A DNA stretch of 10,067 nucleotides from a virus, in UHGV virus genome UHGV-1547097, one strand, 5' to 3'. The position numbers were made by a program, and so were the translations under genes. The notes under the pieces are model-generated. The model was not told where the DNA came from, did no database searches, and saw only the letters and a list, made by a program, of their open reading frames with translations. Below, in pieces: positions 3,936 through 10,067 of this stretch; the stretch's first letter is position 1; each line of letters begins with the position of its first letter.

Positions 3936-4877
3936 TCACCCCCTAAATCCTGCCGGGATCTGGCTGTAGTCCACGTTGTCGTAACTGGCTTTGAAGTACG
4001 GGTCTTCACGTTTTTGTGTGTGCGTGCTGACGGACGGCGATAAGCGCAGGGAAAGCTCATCCCATTTTTCCCGCAACTTCGACGGGCTGAGCACGTTACG
4101 GCACCAGAACGGATCGCGGCTGACGCGGCTGTACATCTCGCAGATTTGTTTGTGAGTACGACCATCCTGCACACACATCAGGCGAATTTCGTTTGCCCAG
4201 GCTGTCCAGTTAGGTTCTTTGGGACGAACCACCTCGCCGTCACATTCGGCGGCCTGCTCGTACAGGGCGATGATTTTTTTCCAAAGCCACTGTGCGCAGG
4301 TCAAATCATCCTGCGTCCCCCACTGGCACTTTTTAGGGCTGAATACAACCGCATCAGGATGGCGAGTTAAAAAATCCTGTTCATCCGTCTGCGTGTCCGG
4401 TTGCGAAGCGTCCGGACGAGAAGGTTTTTTATCTGACGGATCATGTTTTGATTTTACTGACGGATCCCCGCCAGATTCTGACGGGTGAAAACCCGCTTTT
4501 TTGCCAGATTTCGACGCATCAAATTTTGACGGGTCAGATTTTGATGCATCAGATTTTGACGGGTCAGAATCTGACAGTTGAGAAAATGCCGCTGCCTGAA
4601 GCTTCGCAACGTTAAGCTGATAAACATTCGACGCATTGCGGTTACCCTGGCGACGCGCCTTACGCGTTAACCAGCCTTCTGCTTCCAGCCGTGCGATAGC
4701 CGTTCTGACGGTACTCATCCCCGCGCCAATCTGGCGGGCAATGGTTTCAATCGATGGCCAGCACACACCTTCGTCATTACTGAAATCAGCCAGGCGGGCC
4801 ATAATTGCCACGCTGGATAATTTCATGCCTGACGCTGCGCAACCATCCCATACATAGCCGGTTAATTTAGTGCTCAT
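3936..4877 (-). CDS. Phage replication initiation protein (O-like): N-terminal winged-helix HTH, acidic Ser/Asp repeat linker, C-terminal domain
   Basis: 313 aa, ATG at 4877 with GAGG 6 nt upstream. N-terminal segment SSVAIMARLADFSNDEGVCWPSIETIARQIGAGMSTVRTAIARLEAEGWL is typical of replication-initiator HTH domains. The central linker SDSDPSKSDASKSDPSKFDASKS is encoded by the iteron array. Confidence 0.8.
   Translation of the reverse strand: MSTKLTGYVWDGCAASGMKLSSVAIMARLADFSNDEGVCWPSIETIARQIGAGMSTVRTAIARLEAEGWLTRKARRQGNRNASNVYQLNVAKLQAAAFSQLSDSDPSKSDASKSDPSKFDASKSGKKAGFHPSESGGDPSVKSKHDPSDKKPSRPDASQPDTQTDEQDFLTRHPDAVVFSPKKCQWGTQDDLTCAQWLWKKIIALYEQAAECDGEVVRPKEPNWTAWANEIRLMCVQDGRTHKQICEMYSRVSRDPFWCRNVLSPSKLREKWDELSLRLSPSVSTHTQKREDPYFKASYDNVDYSQIPAGFRG
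4446..4577. repeat. Iteron array (candidate replication origin) inside the initiator gene
   Basis: Tandem ~15-bp units on the + strand: AGATTCTGACGGGTGA (4473-4488), AGATTTCGACGCATCA (4506-4521), AATTTTGACGGGTCAG (4522-4537), ATTTTGATGCATCAG (4538-4552), ATTTTGACGGGTCAG (4553-4567), plus degenerate copies at 4446-4466 and 4568-4577. Each unit has a palindromic core (TGACGGGTCA or TGATGCATCA). Confidence 0.75.
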
Positions 4878-6017: not shown

Positions 6018-6029
6018 ACGCTCTCCAAA

Positions 6030-6092
6030 CTAAGTTTTGTTAGATGCTAATTACAAATCTATCTTTGGTCAATAAAAACTAAGATTACTTAG
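6030..6092. promoter_or_regulatory. Right operator/promoter switch region: two 14-bp inverted-repeat operator candidates flanking a PR-like promoter
   Basis: Site A CTAAGTTTTGTTAG (6030-6043) and site B CTAAGATTACTTAG (6079-6092). On the - strand, -35 TTGACC (complement of 6067-6072), 17-nt spacer, -10 TAGCAT (complement of 6044-6049), directed toward cro. A PRM-like promoter for cI is presumably here too but not confidently placed. Confidence 0.55.
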
Positions 6093-6794: not shown

Positions 6795-6823
6795 TTGCCA
6801 TAATAACTAAGTTAAGTTAGATT
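6795..6823 (+). promoter_or_regulatory. Candidate PL-like promoter overlapped by an operator palindrome (OL-like)
   Basis: -35 TTGCCA (6795-6800), 17-nt spacer, -10 TAGATT (6818-6823). Operator-type site C CTAAGTTAAGTTAG (6807-6820) overlaps spacer and -10. Further CTAAG half-sites at 6758-6762 and 6771-6775. Confidence 0.45.
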
Positions 6824-6947
6824 TTATATCAAAGATAACGAACAGGCAGGACGCCCACGAAGTAGCCGCCTGGGGCATATGAAGTCCAGGATGATTCGTT
6901 GAGTCATGTTGTGCCACTAGGCACTCATGTTAAAGCAGGTGTATGAA

Positions 6948-7223
6948 ATGAAAGTCCAGATTTTAAACAATAACTCTGAAGTCGTTTGGTCATACGACAT
7001 AGCCGCCCCTGTAGATCAGAGCGGCGATAGCTGGACCAATGGGAAACATCAGATTATGGCTGGAGTTGTGTTCTCTTTACGCCGTGCTTTGGAACAGGCT
7101 GAAGTATTTCCATCAGACCCTGAATGGAAATGGCCTTTTTCTATTTGTCCAAATTCGGAGAGCACATTTCAGAAAATTGGTCAGAAAGTCGCACTCGAAG
7201 AGCATCAGCCAACTGTTTCCTGA
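6948..7223 (+). CDS. Hypothetical small protein (91 aa), first ORF downstream of cI
   Basis: ATG at 6948 preceded by AGGTG with a 6-nt spacer (track starts at ATG 6927, in frame). Last 83 nt overlap the convergent ORF 7141-7386. No family recognised and no Arg-rich N-like motif. Confidence 0.4.
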   Translation: MKVQILNNNSEVVWSYDIAAPVDQSGDSWTNGKHQIMAGVVFSLRRALEQAEVFPSDPEWKWPFSICPNSESTFQKIGQKVALEEHQPTVS

Positions 7224-7386
7224 TTTTTTCAGGTAACTCGTCGGCATCGCAGAAACAACAACGCTCGATCATGTTGAAAGCCGATTCGTAGAACTGTTTC
7301 TGCTGAGTGTCGCTGAGACAGGAAAAGAGCGACGTTACGATGATTTTATTAATTGCATTATCAAGTTCTTTTTCATCAAAAGTCAT
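7141..7386 (-). CDS. Hypothetical small protein (81 aa), convergent to the preceding ORF
   Basis: ATG at 7386 with AAGGA 7 nt upstream. Protein-like composition (MTFDEKELDNAINKIIVTSLF...ERCCFCDADELPEK). No family recognised. Confidence 0.45.
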   Translation of the reverse strand: MTFDEKELDNAINKIIVTSLFSCLSDTQQKQFYESAFNMIERCCFCDADELPEKIRKQLADALRVRLSDQFSEMCSPNLDK

Positions 7387-7640
7387 TTGATTTTCCTTTT
7401 ATGTATACGGGCTTAAAAGGATACCACCGAGCCTGAAGTGGTGAAAAGACAGGCACATAACAGCTAAGTATTTTCAACCAGAGAGAATCCTTAGCGTTGT
7501 GGTGAATGCGGCTCAGCGCACGCGGGTTAAGGTTGAGGCTGACAGTCGACCTTCTGTGGATACCCACCCGCCTGGTGTGCAACCTTCGCCAGGCACCGGG
7601 AGGCACCCGGCACCACAACTTTATGCTGTGTGTAGTCCTG

Positions 7641-7686
7641 GCGGTACCAGTTTGTACCCTTGCTTCCGGCTGGTACCGCTCTTTTT
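7641..7686 (+). terminator. Intrinsic-terminator-like hairpin followed by a T-run
   Basis: GCGGTACCAG (7641-7650) pairs with CTGGTACCGC (7670-7679) over a 19-nt loop, followed by TCTTTTT (7680-7686). The loop is long for a classical terminator. Confidence 0.45.
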
Positions 7687-7823
7687 ACAAAACGGAGAAG
7701 AGCATCACCGGACGACGGGCTCATAACCCAATCCATCCGGGCGGCTGCCACCGCAGGTGTTCTTCTCTGTTTTGTGGAGAAACTAATCGGCCTTGCAGGG
7801 TCGATATGATGAGGAGTAGCAAA

Positions 7824-8186
7824 ATGGCTAGCGAACGCAGTACTGATGTGCAGGCATTTATCGGGGAGCTGGACGGCGGCGTATTTGAAACCAAAATCGG
7901 CGCAGTTCTCAGTGAAGTCGCTTCCGGTGTGATGAACACGAAAACCAAAGGGAAGGTCTCACTCAATCTGGAAATCGAACCGTTTGATGAGAACCGTGTG
8001 AAAATCAAACACAAACTCTCATATGTTCGCCCGACTAACCGCGGGAAAATTTCCGAAGAAGACACCACCGAAACGCCGATGTATGTCAATCGCGGTGGTC
8101 GCCTGACTATTCTGCAGGAAGACCAGGGACAATTACTGACTCTTGCCGGTGAACCTGACGGAAAACTCCGCGCAGCAGGTCGTTAA
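7824..8186 (+). CDS. yfdP: YfdP-like phage protein (120 aa), unknown function
   Basis: ATG at 7824 with AGGAG 7 nt upstream. The track's upstream extension to 7506 lacks an RBS and lies in the structured noncoding region. Matches my recollection of E. coli K-12 CPS-53 YfdP (MASERSTDVQAFIGELDGG...). Confidence 0.7.
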   Translation: MASERSTDVQAFIGELDGGVFETKIGAVLSEVASGVMNTKTKGKVSLNLEIEPFDENRVKIKHKLSYVRPTNRGKISEEDTTETPMYVNRGGRLTILQEDQGQLLTLAGEPDGKLRAAGR

Positions 8187-8251
8187 TATCGTTCTTAATA
8201 AACTGATTATTTATCTCATCACTGAATATCTTTATATAGTGAGGACTTATT

Positions 8252-9075
8252 ATGTCTCAGAACTTAGACGCAACCGCAATTAATCAAATCCATGCCCTTA
8301 TTTCTGCTCAGGGTGTTAATGAAATTATCAGTAAGATTGGTGCCGATGCTGTGGCATTGCCTGAGAATTACCGCATTCATGATCTGGAAAAATTTAATTT
8401 AAATCGTTTCCGTTTCCGTGGTGCGCTTTCCACTGCCAGCATCGATGACTTTACCCGTTATTCTAAAGATCTTGCAGATGAAGGCACCCGCTGCTTTATC
8501 GATGCCGATAATATGCGTGCCGTCAGTGTGCTTAACCTGGGTACTATTGATGAGCCAGGTCACGCAGATAACACTGCCACTCTCAAACTGAAAAAGACAG
8601 CACCGTTCTCTGCTCTGTTGTCTGTTAACGGCGAGCGTAACTCCCAGAAATCACTGGCAGAATGGATTGAAGACTGGGCCGACTACCTTGTGGGCTTTGA
8701 TGCTAATGGTGATGCCATTCAGGCAACAAAAGCGGCTGCGGCAGTCCGTAAAATCACGATTGAAGCAAACCAGACCGCTGATTTTGAAGACAATGACTTC
8801 AGCGGCAAACGCTCCCTGATGGAGTCTGTCGAAGCGAAGACCAAAGATATTATGCCTGTGGCATTTGAATTTAAATGCGTTCCGTTTGAAGGTCTGAAAG
8901 AACGTCCGTTTAAATTACGCCTCAGCATTATCACTGGCGATCGTCCGTACTGGTTCTGCGCATTATTCAGCTGGAAGCGGTGCAGGAAGATATGGCTAAC
9001 GAATTTCGTGATCTGCTTGTTGAGAAATTCAAGGACAGCAAAGTAGAAACCTTTATTGGTACTTTCACCGCCTGA
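8252..9075 (+). pseudogene. yfdQ: YfdQ-like phage protein with an apparent single-base deletion (-1 frameshift near 8945-8950)
   Basis: ATG at 8252 with GAGGA 6 nt upstream. The starting frame reads protein-like sequence to about 8946, then Trp/Cys-rich text to TAG 9046. The -1 frame is open from 8914 and reads ...[42 protein letters not shown] to TGA at 9073-9075. Total span is 824 nt, one short of a multiple of three. Confidence 0.65.
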
Positions 9076-9087
9076 TTTCATTACTGC

Positions 9088-9109
9088 AAATGCCCCTGCG
9101 GGGGCATTT
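9088..9109 (+). terminator. GC-rich hairpin (possible weak intrinsic terminator) between the yfdQ-like and yfdR-like genes
   Basis: AAATGCCCC (9088-9096) pairs with GGGGCATTT (9101-9109) over a 4-nt loop, followed by ATGGAAAC, which is a poor U-tract. Confidence 0.3.
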
Positions 9110-9202
9110 ATGGAAACGTAATTGACTCAATAATCGCCGGATGGTGAGGGCTTCCTTTTACCCGAATTCAGCGCGGTGCAGCGCATATACGTGGAGAACA
9201 AA

Positions 9203-9739
9203 ATGTCATTTATTAAAACTTTTTCCGGGAAGCATTTTTATTATGACAGGATAAATAAAGACGACATCGTTATTAACGATATCGCGGTTTCCCTTTCAAA
9301 TATCTGTCGCTTTGCAGGACATCTTTCACACTTCTACAGTGTCGCTCAACATGCGGTGCTTTGCAGCCAGCTGGTGCCGCAGGAATTTGCTTTTGAAGCT
9401 TTAATGCATGATGCAACAGAAGCATATTGCCAGGACATCCCCGCACCACTGAAACGACTTCTTCCTGACTATAAACGGATGGAAGAAAAAATAGACGCCG
9501 TAATCCGTGAGAAATACGGGTTACCTCCTGTTATGAGCACGCCAGTGAAATATGCCGATCTCATTATGCTGGCAACCGAACGCCGCGATCTCGGGCTTGA
9601 TGATGGCTCTTTCTGGCCTGTACTGGAAGGTATCCCGGCAACAGAGATGTTCAAAGTGATTCCACAGGCACCGGGCCATGCCTACGGGATGTTTATGGAA
9701 CGCTTTAACGAGTTATCGGAGTTACGCAAATGCGCATGA
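9203..9739 (+). CDS. yfdR: HD-domain phosphohydrolase (YfdR-like; 5'-deoxynucleotidase-type)
   Basis: ATG at 9203 with GGAGA 5 nt upstream (track starts at GTG 9176). HD-domain metal-binding motifs: H..H (GHLSHFYSVAQHAV), HD (LMHDATEAY), downstream D (YADLIM). 178 aa. Confidence 0.8.
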   Translation: MSFIKTFSGKHFYYDRINKDDIVINDIAVSLSNICRFAGHLSHFYSVAQHAVLCSQLVPQEFAFEALMHDATEAYCQDIPAPLKRLLPDYKRMEEKIDAVIREKYGLPPVMSTPVKYADLIMLATERRDLGLDDGSFWPVLEGIPATEMFKVIPQAPGHAYGMFMERFNELSELRKCA

Positions 9740-10067
9740 ATGTTTTCGAAATGGAAGGGTTTCTTCGTGGGAGATGTGTACCGCGAGATCTGAAAGTAAA
9801 TGAAACAGATGCTGAATACCTGGTGCGTAAATTCGATGCGCTTGAAGCTAAATGTGCAGCACAGGAAAACAATGTAATACCAGTGTCAGCTGAACTGCCG
9901 CCAGCAAATGAAAGTGTTCTGTTATTTGATGCTAACGGAGAAGGCTGGCTAATTGGCTGGCGTTCTCTCTGGTACACCTGGGGACAAAAAGAAACCGGAG
10001 AATGGCTGTGGACATTTCAGGTCGGGGACCTTGAAAACGTCAATATCACTCACTGGGCAGTAATGCC
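9730..10067 (+). CDS. yfdS: YfdS-like phage protein, 5' partial; continues beyond window end
   Basis: ATG at 9730 overlaps the yfdR-like stop; GGAG 8 nt upstream. Open to the window end: MRMNVFEMEGFLRGRCVPRDLKVNETDAEYLVRKFDALEAKCAAQENNVIPVSAELPPANESVLLFDANGEGWLIGWRSLWYTWGQKETGEWLWTFQVGDLENVNITHWAVM. Not in the ORF track because it has no stop. Confidence 0.7.
   Translation, partial: MRMNVFEMEGFLRGRCVPRDLKVNETDAEYLVRKFDALEAKCAAQENNVIPVSAELPPANESVLLFDANGEGWLIGWRSLWYTWGQKETGEWLWTFQVGDLENVNITHWAVM

Follow-up and report, generated by a model that had tools for sequence, protein, structure and literature searches.

The question raised by this locus is what four genes in the early-left region of a phage do for it, and whether they do so as a unit. 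The window analysed is the whole 10,067 nt stretch of the virus genome UHGV-1547097. As had been predicted, four co-directional genes are present at 7824–10067; all lie on the + strand when the RefSeq annotation of the closest Escherichia coli genome is mapped onto the window. Judged by sequence, this is the already described yfdP-yfdQ-yfdR-yfdS locus of an SfV/CPS-53-type prophage, and as a cluster it is largely ordinary. The features referred to below are as follows.

6795–6823, + strand: candidate early-left promoter with an operator-like repeat, from a promoter scan.
7466–7688, + strand: probable STnc100-family structured RNA in the operon leader (Rfam RF02076, 46.5 bits).
7687–7775, + strand: conserved long hairpin, located after the leader terminator and before the ribosome-binding site of yfdP.
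7824–8186, + strand: yfdP, 120 aa, with a GAGGAG ribosome-binding site upstream.
8252–9075, + strand: yfdQ, DUF2303, 274 aa if intact (stop at 9073–9075); frameshifted here, with an open frame to 9046.
8946–8947, + strand: site of the 1 nt deletion in yfdQ, from alignment with SfV and strain STS73-1-E.
9203–9739, + strand: yfdR, 178 aa, encoding an HD-domain metal-dependent phosphohydrolase.
9730–10067, + strand: yfdS, 112 of 120 codons; its start overlaps the yfdR stop and it is cut by the window end.

Overall protein identity to the CPS-53 copies of E. coli K-12 is given as 98–99%. By gene, 118 of 120 residues are identical in YfdP, 272 of 274 in YfdQ after repair of the frameshift, 174 of 178 in YfdR, and 106 of 112 in the part of YfdS encoded within the window. 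The cluster DNA is approximately 97–98% identical to that of phages SfV, SfIV, mEp460-type and Stx2c. No complete E. coli genome is more than 99.5% identical over 7400–10067, or more than about 97% identical over the whole window. The gene yfdT lies beyond the window end.

The original description of these genes as an early-left accessory cluster is supported by the region to their left. A promoter-like site, TTGCCA-17-TAGATT, is located at 6795–6823, directly downstream of a cI-like gene, and has embedded in it an operator-like repeat, ACTAAGTTAAGTTAG. Two more copies of its ACTAAG-N5-(C/G)TTAG motif are found in the cI-cro spacer, at 6029–6043 and 6078–6092, which suggests a repressor-controlled operon. 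The region immediately upstream of yfdP had been called noncoding; its position in front of the genes is as described, but it holds a structured RNA, probably of the STnc100 family, and a terminator. The leader at 7466–7688 covers the whole RF02076 model (1–206) at E 1e-7, its score of 46.5 bits falling just short of the gathering score of 47, and folding of 7430–7823 gives a z-score of -5.5. Comparison of six phage leaders reveals conservation of the STnc100-type core with compensatory changes, and phage ST64B has a partial STnc100 match at the same location. The 3′ end of the RNA forms a terminator-like hairpin, in which 7640–7650 pairs with 7670–7679, followed by TCTTTTT. With a terminator upstream of yfdP, expression of the genes requires either read-through or a further promoter, and no such promoter was found. 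For the long hairpin at 7687–7775, base pairing is preserved across five leaders and compensatory changes are few; mEp460-type and Stx2c phages carry this half of the leader along with yfdP. The idea that the STnc100-like leader is a put antiterminator RNA of the HK022 type was considered and rejected, as the PL/PR region of HK022 gave no STnc100 match at E values up to 1.

The best explanation of the locus, to which a probability of about 0.5 is assigned, is that these are delayed-early accessory genes of an SfV/CPS-53-type lambdoid prophage that act in the shut-off of host replication. This is the best-supported role because of the binding of YfdR to DnaA and the inhibition of oriC by multicopy genes, both reported for K-12 (PMC4776307). 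Purified YfdR binds DnaA domain I, for which Phe46 of DnaA is important, and causes moderate inhibition of DiaA–DnaA and DnaB–DnaA binding (PMC4776307). Replication from oriC in vitro is inhibited by extracts with excess YfdQRST (PMC4776307). The minimal multicopy set for suppression and oriC inhibition is yfdQ and yfdR with either yfdS or yfdT, yfdP being dispensable (Noguchi and Katayama 2016; PMC4776307), and the authors propose a role in phage growth, pointing to the SfV homologues. Since the window proteins are near-identical to those of K-12, this DnaA-binding, initiation-inhibiting set should be directly transferable to the present phage.

Transcription would start at the repressor-controlled promoter downstream of the cI-like gene, and the transcript would cross the structured, STnc100-like leader with its terminator before entering yfdP, yfdQ, yfdR and yfdS. 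To judge from the near-identical K-12 proteins, YfdR may on induction bind DnaA domain I in competition with DiaA and DnaB and, jointly with YfdQ plus one of YfdS and YfdT, may block initiation at oriC. Host chromosome replication would then be stopped while the phage replicates. The original prediction had named host takeover and anti-defence as functions often carried by such operons: the first of these is backed by the K-12 DnaA binding and oriC inhibition, and for the second nothing supporting was found. In K-12, the replication effect is seen only on overexpression, and deletion of yfdQRST leaves initiation and hydroxyurea resistance unchanged (PMC4776307). Against host-replication shut-off, the range of phages that carry YfdR-type HD genes (337 records) would sit better with an enzyme of general nucleotide metabolism than with an inhibitor dedicated to DnaA.

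The particular copy in the window is altered in one of the required genes. Aligned with its counterparts in strain STS73-1-E and SfV, yfdQ is one base short, the gap falling after 8946; the site reads CGTCC-GTACTG here, CGTCCGGTACTG in SfV and CGTCCTGTACTG in STS73-1-E. This 1 nt deletion stops the open frame at 9046: the conserved last 43 residues give way to 34 unrelated ones, and a conserved C-terminal helix and strand are removed. The intact allele of the nearest relative matches Pfam PF10065 (DUF2303) with 310 bits over model positions 2–269 of 269. None of 92 fetched loci carries the deletion allele, the intact sequence being present in 74, and the exact sequence of the frameshifted product is not on record in the databases searched. 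The deletion may be a pseudogene mutation private to this copy; otherwise it is a sequencing error. Within the window yfdR is intact, as is yfdS, apparently, up to the window end; the initiation-inhibitor set of intact yfdQ and yfdR with yfdS or yfdT is incomplete here, with yfdQ frameshifted. Because yfdQ is required in K-12, the cluster here has probably lost the ability to inhibit replication, provided that the deletion was not introduced by sequencing, and a broken yfdQ makes the locus unsuitable as a functional reference.

The third gene had been singled out as encoding an HD-domain phosphohydrolase, the sole recognisable fold amongst the four, and this was correct. Residues H50, H69-D70 and D119 of YfdR are invariant in 17 sequences, including a Pseudomonas phage homologue at 39% identity, and in the same 17 sequences H40, D78 and E126 are likewise invariant. 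The H..HD..D residues line up with their counterparts in Atu1052 (PDB 2gz4), which is the nearest solved structure to YfdR (residues 19–175, E 1.5e-12). The more specific annotation as a 5′-deoxynucleotidase agrees with the RefSeq product name but not with the thresholds of the curated YfbR families, which are not reached. YfdR scores 24.5 bits against Pfam YfbR-like (PF12917), below the gathering score of 25.9, and 19.9 bits against the NCBIfam YfbR equivalog (NF003009), for which the cut-off is 122; the score against Pfam HD_3 is 17.1 bits. On these scores YfdR is a relative of YfbR and no orthologue. Weak 5′-dNMP phosphatase activity has been attributed to K-12 YfdR (Zimmerman et al. 2008, as cited in PMC4776307), and the conserved HD site suggests that the YfdR encoded here also hydrolyses nucleotides.

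YfdR could on this basis be mainly a 5′-(deoxy)nucleotidase that reshapes dNMP pools in lytic growth, with DnaA binding a side effect of overproduction, although this is considered rather unlikely. The invariance of the H..HD..D site across the family points in this direction, as do the nearest families and structures (YfbR-like and Atu1052) and a match at E 4e-109 to phrog_318, which is annotated as dNMP phosphatase. The homologues in the 337 phage records are from unrelated hosts and occur independently of yfdP and yfdQ, including in large virulent phages that lack both. The Dmp deoxynucleotidase of phage T5 would be a comparable case. Counting against such a role, YfdR falls below the YfbR family cut-offs, and no phenotype ties it to nucleotide pools.

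Treatment of the four genes as one unit around the HD enzyme, as had been suggested, is misleading; the conserved unit is yfdP-yfdQ, with yfdR and yfdS optional. In 80 close viral contigs, which are copies at least 99% identical only, yfdP, yfdQ and yfdR are always found together (80/80), and yfdS is replaced or absent in 30. More distant context was taken from tblastn matches in annotated phages. A YfdP homologue is situated upstream of a YfdQ homologue in all of 11 diverse phages, adjacent in 10 and separated by one small ORF in the other; the hosts are Enterobacteria, Vibrio, Halomonas, Pseudomonas, Psychrobacter, Acinetobacter and Xanthomonas. YfdR is encoded by three of these 11 phages and YfdS by SfV alone. 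From this distribution the cluster is best described as composite, made up of an old, widespread yfdP-yfdQ pair, yfdR, and a replaceable DUF551 'ea'-type yfdS. The presence of the pair in eight of the 11 phages without yfdR indicates that its core function is probably other than replication inhibition with YfdR. It is put forward tentatively that yfdP-yfdQ could be a new phage-encoded large assembly acting on host replication, phage DNA or host immunity, to which YfdR and YfdS are lineage-specific add-ons. The genes are not confined to prophage remnants, an outcome that the original prediction had allowed for: homologues are present in SfV, SfIV, ST64B, LLS, Stx2 phages and Xanthomonas phage CP2. 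The possibility that yfdQ is a plasmid leading-region gene was also considered and rejected, as it was found in 23 of 72,556 plasmid records, mostly of non-mobilisable plasmids.

YfdP matches phrog_204 at E 1e-49; PF27127 is precomputed for a 98%-identical YfdP cluster, and the Pfam copy searched directly contained no matching model. YfdQ has approximately 1,700 clusters at 50% identity, is about 270 residues long and shows no fusions among the best 150; its AF2 model has a pLDDT of 77. The earlier statement that the P- and Q-like proteins have no recognisable fold was borne out by fold searches with predicted models, which found no relatives in libraries without PDB 9o7m. In the same libraries, YfdQ resembled no known annealing protein, nuclease or DNA-binding fold. 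PDB 9o7m, entitled 'YfdQ Protein' and originating from a Xanthomonas CP2-like phage, is a DUF2303 member homologous to YfdQ (E 1e-44, about 37% identical over the full length), with 36 chains in the entry; no publication for it was found in the literature search. Chains A and B of this entry are not YfdP, because the CP2 YfdP homologue is absent from the PDB. The charge of YfdQ (pI ~4.9) was discarded as uninformative when considered as a hint of DNA binding. In YfdS an N-terminal linker module is followed by a C-terminal DUF551 domain; some phage annotations name the protein 'Eae/EaE'. Its full-length homologue in STS73-1-E matches phrog_583 at E 1e-82 and is borderline for DUF551 (PF04448; 22.2 bits, cut-off 22, residues 50–117).

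The 36 YfdQ chains of 9o7m, with an example chain 'C', hint that A and B may be another molecule, possibly nucleic acid. This would accord with yfdP-yfdQ serving the recombination, replication or end protection of phage DNA through a large assembly of YfdQ, replication inhibition being secondary; we regard this as unlikely. The pair lies in or beside Gam-RecT-Exo-SSB in VT2phi_272, and close to it are recombinase 'syn' and 'exo' genes and SSB in Vibrio phage 44E38.1, Erf, exonuclease, endonuclease and SSB genes in CP2, and NinB in Vibrio phage pA2SJ1. However, an early-operon neighbourhood is weak evidence in mosaic phages, and a 2025 survey found the genes to be neither restricted to nor universal in phages without a recombination module (PMC12315714). 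In favour of such an action, deletion of yfdQ is cited in PMC4776307 as giving weak sensitivity to methyl methanesulfonate (MMS). The acidic character of YfdQ (pI ~4.9) and the fold searches, with no annealing-protein, nuclease or DNA-binding similarity, also argue against a DNA transaction.

A counter-defence function, in which the HD enzyme destroys immune nucleotide second messengers or YfdP/YfdQ neutralize a defence system, is improbable. In its favour, the accessory region of temperate phages to which the genes belong is early, mosaic and non-essential; the genes are widespread yet dispensable, deletion from K-12 having no initiation or hydroxyurea phenotype; and the slot after yfdR is a gene-replacement hot spot, which would fit arms-race turnover. 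However, no link of any of the four genes to immunity emerged from the analysis or the papers, and nothing in either points to degradation of an immune signalling nucleotide by the phosphohydrolase, as had been speculated. Relatives of YfdR are mononucleotidases, with no cyclic-nucleotide phosphodiesterases amongst them. The length and sequence of yfdP-yfdQ are highly conserved across phages of Enterobacteria, Vibrio, Pseudomonas, Xanthomonas and Acinetobacter, unlike those of typical fast-turnover counter-defence genes, and YfdQ is nearly absent from plasmids (23/72,556 records). YfdP, YfdQ, YfdR, YfdS and YfdT gave no PADLOC match at E values up to 0.1; as the PADLOC models represent defence systems and not counter-defence proteins, this result bears little on the matter.

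A benefit to the lysogen, in which the cluster helps the host under stress through damped initiation or oxidative/alkylation tolerance and not lytic growth, is very improbable. In its favour, K-12 yfdQ and yfdS deletions are reported to increase sensitivity to H2O2, and yfdQ deletion that to MMS (Wang 2010, Rooney 2009, cited in PMC4776307); the cluster has persisted in CPS-53, itself a heavily decayed remnant, and 3045 of 5426 complete E. coli genomes contain it; and the host regulator SrsR is reported to activate yfdPQ in stationary phase (PMC9181523). Against it, the reported stress phenotypes are weak, CP2 and LLS are examples of virulent or lytic-growing phages with the same genes, and the genes should be silent in intact-prophage lysogens because they lie behind a repressor-controlled promoter and a terminator.

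Host-replication shut-off remains the preferred reading, and plaque-forming carriers of the module (SfV, LLS) allow it to be tested directly. The catalogue value of the locus is small, as its genes are named, are present in the majority of complete E. coli genomes, and encode proteins near-identical to those covered by the sole functional study. The four genes are not one functional unit, and work confined to the HD enzyme would leave out the conserved core, yfdP-yfdQ. This core is common and widespread and, with a solved structure of a YfdQ homologue, is a tractable target.

Amongst known systems, the yfdP-yfdQ-yfdR-yfdS-yfdT region of K-12 CPS-53 (KpLE1) has gene order and overlaps identical to those of the window. 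The two differ in that K-12 yfdP abuts a truncated O gene, yfdO, whereas the window keeps an intact immunity/replication region with cI, cro and O-like genes, which K-12 has lost; conversely, yfdQ is intact in K-12 and frameshifted in the window. YfbR and Atu1052 (PDB 2gz4) have the HD fold and H..HD..D metal ligands in common with YfdR, and YfbR has the same RefSeq product name. The nucleotide affinity of YfdR is reported to be much lower than that of YfbR (as given in PMC4776307), and YfdR binds DnaA, which is not described for YfbR.

Phage lambda P is an early protein that binds DnaA and inhibits oriC initiation, presumably favouring phage replication, and the analogy with YfdR was drawn by the authors of PMC4776307. 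The two are not homologous: the domain of DnaA bound by lambda P is III, and lambda P also serves as the helicase loader, whereas YfdR, a hydrolase of the HD type, binds domain I and depends in vivo on YfdQ plus one of YfdS and YfdT. In Xanthomonas phage CP2, a YfdP homologue (hhalign probability 99%) precedes a yfdQ-type gene, as in the window. CP2 has no HD or DUF551 gene downstream; instead there are Erf, exonuclease, endonuclease and SSB genes, and a weak DUF1351-like match follows the yfdQ-type gene (26.3 bits, below the cut-off of 27.8).

The closest parallel is phage SfV (orf32-orf29; likewise SfIV, SfII, mEp460-type and Stx2c), whose DNA is 97.8% identical over 7400–10067, leader included. 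The regions left of the leader differ between the SfV-group phages and the window, and SfV yfdQ is intact, unlike the copy described here. The SfV layout is otherwise that of the window, with cI, orf33, the leader and homologues of yfdP, yfdQ, yfdR and yfdS, followed by orf28, xis and int. This shared layout and identity indicate that the cluster belongs to functional phages.

The cluster comprises four plus-strand genes, identified from the ORF list and the sequence, their limits being those that RefSeq gives for the genes in the closest E. coli genome:
7824-8186, plus strand: yfdP
8252 (start) to 9046 (stop of the frame as it stands), plus strand: yfdQ
9203-9739, plus strand: yfdR
9730 (start, overlapping the yfdR stop) to beyond the window end, plus strand: yfdS

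The original prediction of this cluster was right in outline and requires three corrections: a frameshift in yfdQ, a truncated yfdS and a structured leader. The cluster itself is already known. In a Megablast search with positions 7400-10067, 3045 of the 5426 complete E. coli genomes gave matches, 2208 of them with query coverage of 80% or more; 63 phage records also match, with identity of up to 97.8%, including SfV (orf32-orf29), SfIV, mEp460-type and Stx2c-converting phages.

The presence of yfdQ was correctly recognized, but its frameshift was missed: alignment with strain STS73-1-E and SfV reveals one base absent after 8946. This removes the last 43 residues, a predicted helix and strand in which many positions are invariant in a 30-sequence alignment. 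None of 92 loci compared carries the deletion allele (74 have the intact sequence), and the frameshifted product has no record in the protein collection searched. Either yfdQ has been inactivated by a mutation private to this sequence or the missing base reflects a sequencing error. At 9088-9109, 13 nt 3' of the intact yfdQ stop, lies a perfect 9-bp hairpin, AAATGCCCC-TGCG-GGGGCATTT, that lacks a T-run. In Table 1 of PMC9181523 yfdPQ appears as an operon; a transcript end or stabilizer at this hairpin would fit that listing.

Upstream of yfdP, the following features were identified:
6029-6043, 6078-6092 and 6806-6820: operator-like motif ACTAAG-N5-(C/G)TTAG, three copies
6795-6823: promoter-like site TTGCCA-17-TAGATT, just downstream of the cI-like gene
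7466-7688, plus strand: putative STnc100-family structured RNA (Rfam, 46.5 bits, just under the gathering score of 47)
7687-7775, plus strand: long hairpin (7687-7709 paired with 7756-7775) that travels with yfdP

Two copies of the motif are in the cI-cro spacer and one is inside the promoter-like site, which, judged by its sequence, fits a repressor-controlled early-left promoter; the three copies may represent OR and OL/PL. The interval from the cI-like gene to the leader holds two ORFs that overlap in opposite orientations, 6927-7223 (plus) and 7141-7386 (minus), each with a full-length match to a PHROG family of its own (phrog_3195 and phrog_3311). A good ribosome-binding site precedes the minus-strand ORF; the SfV annotation includes the plus-strand ORF (orf33) only. 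Within the O-like replication gene, repeated TCAGATTTTGA-type units (4502-4576) look like origin iterons, and a mir-5880 match there is spurious, being produced by these repeats. In the K-12 yfdO/yfdP spacer, the same 11-mers are reported to be boxes bound by SrsR, a host regulator (PMC9181523).

The leader, originally described as noncoding, is strongly structured (z-score -5.5). The STnc100 match closes with a hairpin resembling a terminator (7640-7679) and, directly after it, the T-run TCTTTTT (to 7686). The core of this RNA, with compensatory base changes, is present in the leaders of ST64B, 118970_sal3, LLS, Kp4866-6 and phiES15; the genes after it in phiES15 are kil and gam instead of yfdP, and it is thus an early-left leader feature not tied to yfdP. 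The STnc100-like RNA might act as an attenuator or processing signal, or exist as a free sRNA. The put regions of HK022 were considered for comparison, and do not match the STnc100 family. The other half of the leader (7687-7823, plus strand) accompanies yfdP in mEp460-type, Stx2c and other phages without the STnc100 core, and a second, smaller hairpin lies within it, just before the yfdP ribosome-binding site.

The cluster is composite. Eleven annotated phages with YfdQ homologues of 26% to 99% identity were examined: the enterobacterial SfV, ST64B and Stx2 phage VT2phi_272, together with Pseudomonas phage pAN, three Vibrio phages, Halomonas phage H4907, Psychrobacter phage Psymv2, Acinetobacter phage Mystique and Xanthomonas phage CP2. 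A YfdP homologue (profile E-values 1e-18 to 1e-65) is directly upstream of YfdQ in 10 of these phages; the exception is Vibrio phage pA2SJ1, where a single small annotated ORF intervenes. Only three of the 11 encode YfdR: the gene is adjacent in both SfV and ST64B and lies three genes further downstream in pAN. YfdS and YfdT are encoded in SfV only. Genes of the YfdR HD type occur in 337 phage records, including large virulent Caulobacter, Bacillus and Stenotrophomonas phages. In 80 viral contigs with a YfdQ identity of 99% or more, yfdP, yfdQ and yfdR are found together without exception; 50 have a full-length YfdS, 13 share only its N-terminal third and 17 lack it, so that the position after yfdR is a gene replacement point. 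In those 13 close relatives (among IMG/VR contigs L004-L083) YfdS is kept over approximately the first 40 residues and the rest of the gene is different; this N-terminal module seems to serve as the joint at which recombination exchanges the 'ea'-type genes downstream.

The remaining interest is the uncharacterized yfdP-yfdQ pair, which in distant phages is often found amid recombination and single-strand-DNA genes. Clustering at 50% identity divides the YfdQ family into 1,733 groups; among the best 150, most are of 265-280 residues and none is a fusion. The family is almost missing from plasmids. According to a 2025 survey of lambdoid phages, yfdP, yfdQ and the HD gene occur commonly in early-left operons; yfdP and yfdQ are without known function, and the genes are neither confined to phages lacking a recombination module nor present in all of them (PMC12315714). 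The structure of a YfdQ homologue has been deposited (PDB 9o7m, 'YfdQ Protein'): 36 chains, with 'C' as the example chain, share one 274-residue sequence, 98.8% identical to that of the CP2-like Xanthomonas phage MET23-P3. To take chains A and B for nucleic acid would be a guess. A literature search found no paper describing this entry, and no PDB entry was found for the CP2 YfdP homologue. In CP2 (L003, 2639-3892) the pair comes first in an operon that also encodes Erf, an exonuclease, an endonuclease and SSB.

YfdQ belongs to DUF2303 (310 bits), YfdS has a borderline C-terminal DUF551 match (22.2 bits, cut-off 22), and YfdP is assigned to phrog_204 and precomputed PF27127, with no local Pfam match. 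The predicted HD fold of YfdR is borne out: its whole length aligns with the HD protein Atu1052 (PDB 2gz4; E 1.5e-12), and H50, H69-D70 and D119 are invariant among homologues down to 39% identity. YfdR matches HD_3 and YfbR-like only weakly, the latter at 24.5 bits where the gathering score is 25.9, and reaches 19.9 bits, with a cut-off of 122, for the NCBIfam YfbR equivalog. These alignments and sub-threshold scores indicate a putative HD hydrolase with an intact site, a relative of YfbR and not its orthologue. PADLOC returned no matches among the cluster proteins.

Of the two roles originally proposed, anti-defence or signal degradation is a less likely possibility that has no published support, whereas host takeover is directly supported by work on near-identical proteins. 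In the study by Noguchi and Katayama, yfdQRST was recovered because, in multicopy, it suppressed the overinitiating hda-185 mutant; the smallest effective set combined yfdQ and yfdR with either yfdS or yfdT, and yfdP was dispensable. Purified YfdR bound DnaA, with Phe46 of DnaA domain I important, and in vitro oriC replication was inhibited in extracts containing an excess of YfdQRST, while gene deletion left initiation and hydroxyurea resistance unaffected (PMC4776307). YfdR, with YfdQ and YfdS or YfdT, may shut off host initiation by acting on DnaA. This is the best-supported mechanism, its basis being wholly overexpression data, and it leaves the conservation of yfdP-yfdQ in phages lacking yfdR unexplained. 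By analogy with lambda P, the same authors suggest a role in phage growth (PMC4776307). Compared with E. coli K-12 CPS-53, identity is 118/120 residues for YfdP, 174/178 for YfdR, 106/112 for YfdS and, after restoring the one missing base, 272/274 for YfdQ.
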